Origin: Tubulanus polymorphus
Lineage: Eukaryota > Animalia > Nemertea
Reading direction: 5' to 3'
Length of the DNA: 64,000 nt
Assembly: GCF_964204645.1 (NCBI RefSeq)
Contig: NC_134033.1
Coordinates: forward strand, 7,014,655-7,078,654
Position 1 is the first letter of the stretch. The number at the start of each line of letters is the position of its first letter. Below, piece after piece: positions 33,510 through 36,599 of the stretch. The notes below the pieces were generated by a model. That model searched no databases and had not been told where the DNA came from. It saw only the letters and a list, made by a program, of their open reading frames with translations. The translations under genes and the position numbers were made by a program.

Positions 33510-34053
33510 GTAATGTTCTTTATTATTATTATTATTTCTTTATTCTTTCTAATGATTTCAAATCTTGATTGCATAAATACAATATTGAGTGCGACTAACA
33601 TAATTATACACACCTGCTGAACCATCGCCCATAAAAAATCCTTTGATAAAATATTCTTTTTCTTCTAATGTTTCAGGTTCTATGTTATAAATATTATCAA
33701 TTATTTCATCAAATGACATATGATTCATTGTTGGGTAAAATCTCTTATGTAATAATTCCTCTCCAATTTTTATATCAGTTGGTTTTATTTCATCACCATT
33801 ATTTCTAATTAAACTATGATCTTCTGTAACATCAACAAACCCAAATTTAGTTCTAACTCTATAAATTCTTTTATTTGTTAAATAAAATTGTATTTTTATA
33901 TGTCTAATTATATTCGTTAATTTTTTCCATCCATTTATCCATTTATTTGTATTAATTTATTAGTTCATTTTGTTTTGAAATTATTTCTGAAATTCTTCTA
34001 ATTAATATTTGATTTTTGTATTTTAATGATATTGGGGTATCAGCTGTTACAGA
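33510..34053 (-). other. Intein (N-terminal Hint blocks plus start of a LAGLIDADG homing endonuclease) inserted in PolB motif C, truncated
   Basis: Block A SVTADTPI right after YFD; after a frameshift, GWKKLTNIIRH...KRIYRVRTKFGFVDVTEDHSL (TxxH at 33816-33827), IKPTDIKIGEELLH, and FIKGFFMGDGSAG (33621-33641). Confidence 0.88.
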
Positions 34054-36599
34054 ATCAAAATATAATATTTCAATATGTTTTTCCCCAAAAAGTGGTTGTA
34101 AAACATTATAATAAAAATCGTACATTAATAATTTTGGTATTTCTAAAACAGTTGAACCAATGAATATAGGTTTATTAAATTTCATTGACGTTCTTTTTAA
34201 TTTTACCGCAGTTAAATAATCTTCAAATCTTTTATTTCCTAAATGTCTAGGACTTGATTGTAAATGTCTTAATCGTTCGGAATTATTTACTAATTCAATA
34301 TCATTTCTACTTCTAATATTTTTACATGATTTTCCATAACAACTATTATTCATTAATTTGAAGAAATCATTTTCAAAATCTGTTTTTGATATGGTTCTCT
34401 GTTGAGTATTAAAATCTATATATTTTTCTAACCACTTCGATTGATTAAATTCAATATATCTTTGTACTTTCTTTAATTTCATTTCTTGTTTTAGATAAAA
34501 TTTTAACATTCTATAATGAACAATATAATTGTATTTATTATTTTGAGTAAGTATTAATTTTTCTGTAAAAACATGATCTTTCGGTTTTATTTTCTTCTGG
34601 TATTCACTTAGATAACTATCATCTACGGCTAAATGTTCTGGGCAATATGGTAAGTTTCTTATTTTAAACTTTATGTTATCAGGATATTCTAAATCAACTA
34701 CAAAGAAATAACCAATTGGTGCTTCATCTTTTAAACCCATAATTGCACTTTCCCAATCAGTTTTATCATCATTTTCAACTACTGTTAATATAACATTTTT
34801 GTATGGTTGGGGTTGCATCATTGCTCAACCATATAGATTATTTGCATCAAAATACAATAATTTATATTCATCATTTGTTTTAAAATGTCTATCTCCCATA
34901 ACACCACTAATTCCACCTCTAATTGATTTTTCAAATAATAAAACCATGTCTGGTTCTTTTAATAAATCCAATTCTACATTTGTATATTTTAAACCACATT
35001 GCCAGGTTAAACCAGACTTGAATAACAATAACAAGGATCAACATTAAAATGATTTAAATTAACTTCTCTAATTTTTTTCAAATATATCAGCCAATATCAT
35101 AACATCTGATTTTAAGTATAAATCTACTAATTCACCATGATTTTTTATCTTAAAATGATTCCAAATATTTTATGATTAGTAAATTTCAATTTATAATCTT
35201 TTTCTGTTGGCATTATTAATTTACAAAAATCTTTATTATCACATAATTCTTTATGTTTTAATAATGTATTCTCAGTCATAAATTAAGATAAACATTTTCT
35301 TCATAATAAATTTTATTATGGTGATCACTTTCTGTTCTAAAGAATAAATCAATTTGTTTTAACCACATATAATGTTCATTTTCATCTTTTTTTGTAATAT
35401 AACAAATCTATAGCATTTTCATCATCATAATATTCTGTTAAATATAAAGCTTCCAATGTATAATCTTTAATATTTTCACCTTTTGTTTTTGGTAATTGCA
35501 TTAATTCAAAGACATTTATTTTTAAATTATTAACTTTTTCTATTTTAGAAATCATTTTTATAGTTACTGGATATTGATCAATTTTATATAATGTTTCATA
35601 TTTCCGGTAATATGTTATTCTACAAACATTTTCCTGTGTTGGATGTAAACAACTAATAATTGACCATAGAAAACATTTATTATCTTCATTTTGAATATTT
35701 ATTACTGCTTTTGTTGTAAATGGTAATTTAATATAAGATGATGCTTTAATATCCTTTTCTGTTGTAAAGTTTGAATCATTTTTAAACATTTTATTACTTT
35801 TTGATGTTTTATTTCTTTTTGTATTGTAAACATTTAAATCTAAATATATAATTTCATTCAATGTTAAGCCAGAACCCTCAAAATATCTTTCTTCAATATG
35901 ACGTTTAAATTCATTAAATATTTTTTCTAACTTCTCTTTTATTTGTGTTTTTGAAATTATTTCTTCAGAGTGTGTTTGAATATTATAATCCATTTTTTCT
36001 TCTGACTTTATAAAACTGACTTTCCCAGAGATACTAATTTTTGGATATTCAACATCTGTTATCAAATCTAGTATTTTTTCTATTATTTCATTAAATTTAC
36101 TATAATCTTCTATTGTTGTACCTTTAAAAAATCTAAATATAATAGCTGCAGGGCCAATTTTACTATGTAATGTTTCTAAAATTTCAATTGTATCTTTTAT
36201 TTCTAGTGAATCAATATAATTTCTAACATTTTCCATGTAAGGTTTATTTGAAATGGATTTAGTTTTTGAATTTGGTTTTTTTACTTTTTGAGGTTTATCA
36301 TCAAAATAATCTTTTCCTAAAACATTATTACTCAAATTTTGATGGTGTTTTTGTGATTCGAGATGTCTATTATAATTCCTTTTTACTATAAATTCATTAC
36401 AAACTTCACATTTTATTTCAACCACATTCATATTTTCTAATCTTTCTTTTCTTTCAAAATCTATTACATTTTTTATATGATTTGCAGTTTTTTCATGTCG
36501 TGTTTTATTAGATGTATCGACGTATTTTTTACAATATGTGCAATAATATTGATTTTTATTAACATTATTGTTTTCTGTCTGGTGTTCATTCTCCCCCAT
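33510..36599 (-). pseudogene. polB: Protein-primed family B DNA polymerase with N-terminal zinc fingers; internally deleted, intein-containing, C-terminally truncated
   Basis: YIKLPFTTKAVINIQNEDNKCFLWS; Exo[23 protein letters not shown]; motif A LYFDANNLYG; motif B FKLMNNSCYGK; motif C begins ILYFD. Confidence 0.93.

Follow-up and report, generated by a model that had tools for sequence, protein, structure and literature searches.

What interrupts the catalytic motif of a DNA polymerase gene within a decayed Polinton/Maverick element, and how did it come to be there? The question is raised by a 64,000-nucleotide stretch of genomic DNA (the window), on the minus strand of which the family B, protein-primed DNA polymerase (pPolB) of such an element breaks off inside motif C (YxD/TDS, the slash marking the point of interruption). 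The interrupting sequence is, with near certainty, the N-terminal half of a LAGLIDADG intein. We consider a broader reading quite probable as well: that the genome is likely an animal one, that intact copies of the intein are predicted to splice and are likely to home into empty copies of the polymerase, and that they likely share one origin among giant-virus PolBs.

The minus-strand open reading frame (ORF) at 34824-33952 contains polymerase motifs A and B and then reads IEILYFD at motif C. Its window translation continues as SVTADTPISLKYKN, which starts SVTADTP where TDS is expected. The boundary between extein and intein (YFD/SVT) falls at 34054/34053, with the Asp codon at 34056-34054 and the Ser codon starting at 34053. 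A second minus-strand frame (33956-33558) carries GWKKLTNIIRH, RVRTKFGFVDVTEDHSLI with its DVTEDHSL, and KGFFMGDGSAG. The three diagnostic intein motifs each occur once in the six frames of the window and never in 30 shuffles. The original prediction, made from the letters of this DNA, had placed a Ser-start block A directly behind ILYFD and a continuation from GWKKLTNIIRH one frameshift on, and both are borne out by the translation. It was mistaken in stating that the ORF track misses the second frame, as the listed stop-to-stop ORFs do contain this piece.

Ser1 and the TxxH of block B are present in the window copy, which retains only the first of the LAGLIDADG blocks. A further frame change lies at about 33578. 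The copy had been described as broken off near 33510 with its C-terminal end out of view; resemblance to intact inteins indeed stops at about 33535, beside an AAT-rich run, and tblastn of the window found no C-terminal intein half and no C-extein. The polymerase has stops and frame changes upstream and the intein is frameshifted and cut off, and therefore the window copy is dead. A profile built from the motif-C inteins of RNA-primed PolBs alone matches the second window piece (E 8.7e-37). The same piece is 63-74% identical to the proteins P0007, P0299 and P0292.

Intact versions are found in related proteins. A search with the ORF spanning motifs A to C returned 869 proteins; eight of the best 120 of these carry an insert at the same Asp, and most others read D/TDS or a variant. 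Two further searches and cluster look-ups brought the collection to 480 proteins in total. These include 32 complete inteins of 333-354 amino acids, all at the same site and falling into 13 sequence clusters, many of them near-copies within clusters and not independent. Complete inteins begin with Ser and end with Asn. Both LAGLIDADG (GFxxxDG) blocks are present in 32/32 and the block B pattern in 30/32, while the C-terminal ends have Thr at +1 in 66 of 69 cases and a His-Asn end in 61 of 69. Beyond the Asn the relatives continue with TDS and the remaining polymerase, as had been anticipated for intact copies. Membership of several carrier clusters ranges from tens to 136 proteins, and many of these lie on contigs between tens of kb and 1 Mb long, which is what one would expect of multi-copy elements when eukaryotic genomes are assembled.

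The Intein_splicing model (PF14890) is matched above the Pfam cut-off by P0019, P0023 and P0285 and below it by six others. TIGR01445 scores above its cut-off in four of the seven intact Polinton proteins tested, and the intact relatives also match the LAGLIDADG models PF14528/PF05204. Block A, TxxH and GxFxGDG had been read as the marks of a large intein, and in the intact relatives, though not in the window fragments, the Hint and LAGLIDADG models agree. A model of P0023 folded from a 40-row alignment (pLDDT, the score predicted for the local distance difference test, 81), which was used for the fold comparison since a single-sequence fold gave pLDDT 31, matches the TliVMA intein (E 5e-14), PI-PfuI, PI-SceI and I-DmoI. 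For the I-DmoI-like fold the target template modelling (TM) score is about 0.7. From their motifs the intact Polinton inteins are predicted to be class 1 (canonical) and to splice out of the polymerase. A hedgehog-type Hint domain is ruled out by the LAGLIDADG domain and the precise empty alleles.

Full and empty copies were found side by side. In raw reads from a separate study (run X6, of which about 12% was covered, filed under the species label of the best-matching read set), the unique flank has a depth of about 1, compared with several hundred for the polymerase. At the element end (36684), 922 reads depart into unlike flanks, which implies many insertion sites, likely hundreds. Another 129 reads match the polymerase as far as 34054, where the Asp codon ends, and differ beyond it. 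The depth of the intein is 0.54 of that of the adjacent extein, a ratio that omits the bins at 33824-34069, where depth dips and most copies differ from the window copy. Because reads diverge at this base and the intein has about half the depth of the polymerase, full and empty copies must coexist.

The same is seen among the proteins. There are empty YFD/TDS alleles with 86% identity to the window (P0002, along the ORF of motifs A to C), and the empty P0405 is 98-99% identical to the full P0402, site included. One family comprises seven full and eight empty proteins. The insert is thus in frame, at a precise site and absent from close homologues, the pattern by which inteins are recognised. 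One contig extends 1267 letters past the break of the window copy, which is consistent with longer copies. Run X5, a marine metagenome (share 0.07), contributed just short, scattered pieces and is not counted as evidence of habitat. The read sets listed for the sequence include no RNA set, which has no bearing on expression.

Several further observations concern the carriers. P0019, P0020, P0402, P0405 and others have a second, endonuclease VII-like insert (PF02945), so that some contain two nuclease domains. In P0355, P0368, P0433, P0442, P0445-P0447 and P0453 the intein is followed by TNS, with the catalytic Asp lost, and six of the eight stop a few residues later; such copies are numerous despite the lost Asp and are possibly non-autonomous carriers. 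Polinton polymerase pieces filed under bacterial names (P0011, P0052, P0305, P0327 and P0359; Sulfurimonas, Bartonella, Ca. Thiodiazotropha) are probably host contamination of bacterial assemblies, as is hinted by P0052, which is filed under the metagenome-assembled genome (MAG) of a clam symbiont. A metagenome contig (L012, 2-4189, minus strand) encodes a nearly whole intein-bearing Polinton-type polymerase, with stop codons breaking the intein.

The closest inteins outside the Polintons are those of RNA-primed polymerases. The best 120 matches to the P0007 intein comprise five Polinton-type polymerases and 115 others, nearly all of the latter being RNA-primed PolBs (PF00136) with an intein at the same motif. 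They share the YGD/SVT...N/TDS site and about 30-42% identity with the Polinton inteins. The motifs attributed to the Mimivirus PolB intein (SVTGDTP at its start, and DVTEDHSL) recur in many giant-virus-type PolBs, and P0196, the PolB of a giant-virus MAG contig, carries a motif-C intein. A degenerate pattern of the intein end was found at four viral loci, all RNA-primed PolBs, at 11 metagenome loci, one of them Polinton-type (L012), and at none in prokaryote genomes. When P0007, P0003 and the window piece were used to search for loci, no match was obtained.

In each of the three trees the Polinton inteins group as a single clade (support 99; 100; 100/100), and in each, rooted on motif-B-site inteins, this clade is nested among the RNA-primed motif-C inteins. 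Two loci (L002 and L007) with very long branches in the quick mixture-model tree were left out of the later ones. A C-terminal signature, a pattern picked after seeing the data, is present in 8/8 Polinton inteins, 52/109 RNA-primed motif-C inteins and 0/16 outgroup inteins. On these trees a single entry into Polintons is well supported, and the transfer likely ran from giant virus to Polinton. The clades of intein and polymerase broadly match, which suggests an old entry followed by short-range homing. A one-off capture by the window copy is not upheld: one Polinton lineage has the intein as a family trait, and both full and empty alleles occur in it. In P0149, which resembles type II topoisomerases, a D/TDG-like site is followed by an intein that belongs to the PolB motif-C family, a possible jump to another host protein.

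The distribution on the polymerase tree is patchy. The tree was built from the 270 residues before the site in 132 rows, 13 proteins not being parsed, and it requires eight changes of intein state, six of them forced by well-supported branches. The nearest neighbours of the window copy are empty. In the family with seven full and eight empty members, the difference between full and empty proteins is 0.13-0.16 over the 100 columns that surround the site, against 0.004-0.055 elsewhere. Such a peak (a conversion-like tract) would be expected if flanks had been copied from a related donor. The intein therefore likely spreads by homing into empty Polinton copies, to judge by these alignments.

The empty sites themselves have changed. 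None of the eight empty alleles of that family keeps TDS, and diversity at the site among them is in the top 1.4% of 1182 windows, with one other window higher. By clade, non-TDS empty sites number 34/54 in the most invaded clade, where CDS or TDA replaces TDS, 1/19 in the second, and 0/37 in a clade in which no intein was found. Since these are three clades rather than independent samples, resistance can be taken only as a lead. The missing Cys at +1 behind inteins was set aside as a sign of resistance, since flank copying would give the same result. It is possible, if rather doubtful, that an active homing intein derived from giant viruses acts as a gene drive among hundreds of Polinton copies in an animal germline, and that Polintons answer by altering the catalytic motif at the cut site.

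Several results weigh against the reading given at the outset. Searches of Pfam, NCBIfam and PDB sequences with the window fragments returned no intein family; these pieces are short and out of frame. The intact inteins come from proteins of relatives, none being read from the window's own organism, and the viral and prokaryote collections yielded no intein-bearing Polinton. Pfam matched neither a packaging ATPase nor a maturation protease in the 45 of 62 ORF pieces of the decayed copy that were scanned. The assignment to an animal host rests on a single BEL/Pao element. Patchiness alone cannot separate gain from precise loss. In the approximately unbiased (AU) test (54/89 rows), placing the Polinton inteins as the sister group of the RNA-primed motif-C inteins as a whole is not rejected (p 0.569 in the quick tree, p 0.115 in the careful tree), and the sister link to the RNA-primed subgroup that shares the C-terminal signature has support of 71/74.

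These points leave room for two unlikely histories. In one, a real intein was inherited vertically from an old Polinton ancestor and has since only been precisely lost in many lines, with no ongoing homing. The broad match of intein and polymerase clades is what it predicts, and the change counts on the tree are neutral between gain and loss. Both endonuclease blocks are nevertheless intact in 32/32 complete copies, the divergence peak at the site fits copied flanks, and full and empty alleles 98-99% alike coexist, all of which speak for homing.

The other history, which we judge about as improbable, makes the intein ancestral to both groups, or has it move into giant viruses from Polintons or from some third source, for example the PolB of a eukaryote or a mirusvirus. 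It draws on the unrejected sister position and on the fact that only some of the RNA-primed carriers are tied to giant-virus MAGs. Set against this are the nesting of the Polinton clade in three trees, the far greater number and diversity of RNA-primed carriers, and the post hoc C-terminal signature with its counts for the three groups. The proposal that a giant-virus PolB intein moved into a Polinton PolB thus stands as far as the nesting goes, while its direction is not forced by the AU test.

The genome that carries the intein is very likely an animal genome, because a BEL/Pao element neighbours the Polinton. The nearest clusters to this element (50208-53505) are eukaryotic and, where known, mostly arthropod or nematode, and a passage of PMC3118150 describes BEL/Pao as a metazoan subclass. 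A protist genome or contaminating contig would make this a new intein host protein but not a nuclear intein of an animal. It would suit such a host that the window yielded no identified host gene, yet the BEL/Pao neighbour and its metazoan description render it very improbable. That the assembly joined a Polinton to a giant-virus contig at the extein-intein junction can be practically dismissed, despite the broken window copy truncated at a repeat, since contigs of runs X1 (perhaps the window's own source) and X2 span this junction with at least 31 letters on each side, independent raw reads from another study cover the intein side, and intact proteins of other sources have the same junction.

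Under the favoured reading of a homing intein that entered Polintons from giant viruses, the following scheme may be proposed. During splicing, Ser1 would shift to an ester, the extein Thr would attack that ester, and the terminal Asn would cyclise, restoring the YxDTDS active site. In homing, the endonuclease would cut the empty site in another copy or in a co-infecting element, and repair would copy the intein plus some flank. Entry may have taken place in a shared cytoplasmic virus factory, with the element beside a large cytoplasmic DNA virus, which a VLTF3 gene and TAAATG starts in the element would fit. After one old entry, loss and re-invasion would have alternated among close relatives.

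The decayed Polinton spans 20300-36684 (about 16 kb) and is bounded by terminal inverted repeats (Table 1). As in a Polinton/Maverick, a protein-primed PolB and an rve integrase lie between these repeats. Polintons create a target-site duplication of about 6 bp. No matching duplication was found here, the sequences that flank the two inverted repeats being different, and the copy is old or composite. TAA stands immediately before ATG in 7 of the 28 ATG-started ORFs of the element, including the polymerase, capsid and integrase genes, against 2/50 outside it and 26/441 in shuffles. TAAATG is the poxvirus late initiator. Within 20300-36684 such starts are mostly preceded by a T-rich stretch.

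Table 1. Features of the Polinton and its surroundings in the window.
Feature	Position	Strand	Evidence or remark
Left terminal inverted repeat, begins AGT	20299-20392	+	94 nt, 87% complementary to right repeat
rve (retrovirus-type) integrase gene, in pieces	24213..25129	-	PF00665, 35.8 bits against cut-off 32.6
Major capsid protein gene, in pieces (probable)	25163..26350	-	PF16903 Capsid_N, E 0.001, below curated cut-off
VLTF3-like poxvirus late transcription factor gene fragment, convergent with polymerase	33188..33499	+	PF04947, 29.6 bits against cut-off 25
AAT-rich run where remaining intein and polymerase end are lost	33510..33548	.	Flagged as repeat
Block B (TxxH) of intein with the first of its LAGLIDADG blocks (GFFMGDG), shifted frame, to about half of intein	33535..33935	-	Profile and relatives
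Intein start, Ser1 and block A, in polymerase frame	33967..34053	-	129 X6 reads depart from window exactly at 34054
pPolB, N-extein side to motif C	34054..36599	-	Motif A-C ORF 86% identical to empty allele P0002; intact relatives match PF03175
Right terminal inverted repeat and element end	36592-36685	-	922 X6 reads depart here into unlike flanks, agreement 0.35
LINE-type (long interspersed nuclear element) endonuclease and reverse transcriptase, in pieces	39713-42479	+	Element flank
BEL/Pao retrotransposon, in pieces	50208-53505	+	Element flank

Other repeats were noted in and around the element. Another member of this Polinton family, an incomplete copy, lies at about 1760-5720 and is 82-90% alike to 21077-26787. 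The Polinton contains a high-copy insert of about 650 bp (32323-32977), with about 10x higher depth and 126 reads that skip it exactly, which is likely a short interspersed nuclear element (SINE) or a miniature inverted-repeat transposable element (MITE). A 24-bp tandem array at 22300-22800 is open in several frames. Nested inverted repeats at 21341-21527 and 23607-23953 (163 nt at 97%; 98 nt at 95%), with a related copy at 63739-63796, are possibly a small inserted DNA transposon.

A passage of Ogata 2005 (PMC549080) describes the Mimivirus PolB intein as about 350 amino acids long, with Ser first, Asn last, Thr at +1 and a LAGLIDADG endonuclease. The Polinton inteins resemble these giant-virus motif-C inteins, as so described, in size, terminal residues, Thr at +1, endonuclease and site. 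The hosts differ, being an RNA-primed polymerase (PF00136) there and here the protein-primed polymerase (PF03175) of an integrating 16-kb element. The Polinton is present in many chromosomal copies, which provides homing targets within one genome. Inserts of the HNH, VSR and endonuclease VII types are described from Polinton pPolBs in parts of two reports (10.1101/2023.08.22.554363; PMC11071308), and one sentence of PMC11071308 suggests that such insertions stem from intein invasions. The passages concerned name nucleases and no splicing domain, whereas the insert described here has Hint motifs and a LAGLIDADG domain, its splice site lies within the catalytic motif, and the empty alleles are precise.

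Nuclear homing inteins are also found in fungi and protists (VMA1/PI-SceI, PRP8, Anaeramoeba), and the P0023 fold matches PI-SceI. Fungal, algal and protist nuclear inteins sit in host genes, whereas the Polinton intein is in an endogenous virus-like element. The paper on the Anaeramoeba inteins (PMC10710043) proposes viruses as vectors. Adintoviruses and Polintons (PMC8502044) likewise have terminal inverted repeats, pPolB and rve integrase, and a capsid-like gene of which the counterpart here is a probable one; a VLTF3-like gene appears in a figure legend of that paper, the main text of which contains no occurrence of intein, Hint or LAGLIDADG. In the open-access literature we found no account of a Polinton polymerase that contains an intein with a Hint domain; supplements, subscription journals, InBase or Repbase could hold one. 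The occurrence of a known chemical class of intein in a new host protein is real, and a new host kingdom for nuclear inteins is very likely.

Inteins have been stated to be absent from metazoan genomes (PMC5784728). That absence is a premise for anti-intein drug ideas, and the Polinton intein lies in animal-type chromosomal DNA, not in a host gene. The crossing from an RNA-primed to a protein-primed polymerase is a natural test of target change by a homing endonuclease, because the two polymerase types share little beyond the catalytic motif. The intein also gives independent evidence on the question of whether Polintons of animals share cells with giant viruses in the way that virophages do. 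Because one genome contains both full and empty copies, homing and resistance can be measured directly. If the gene drive and the resistance to it proved true, this case would be the first in which animal nuclear DNA encodes a working intein, and it would be the trace left by an unseen giant virus of the animal group concerned.
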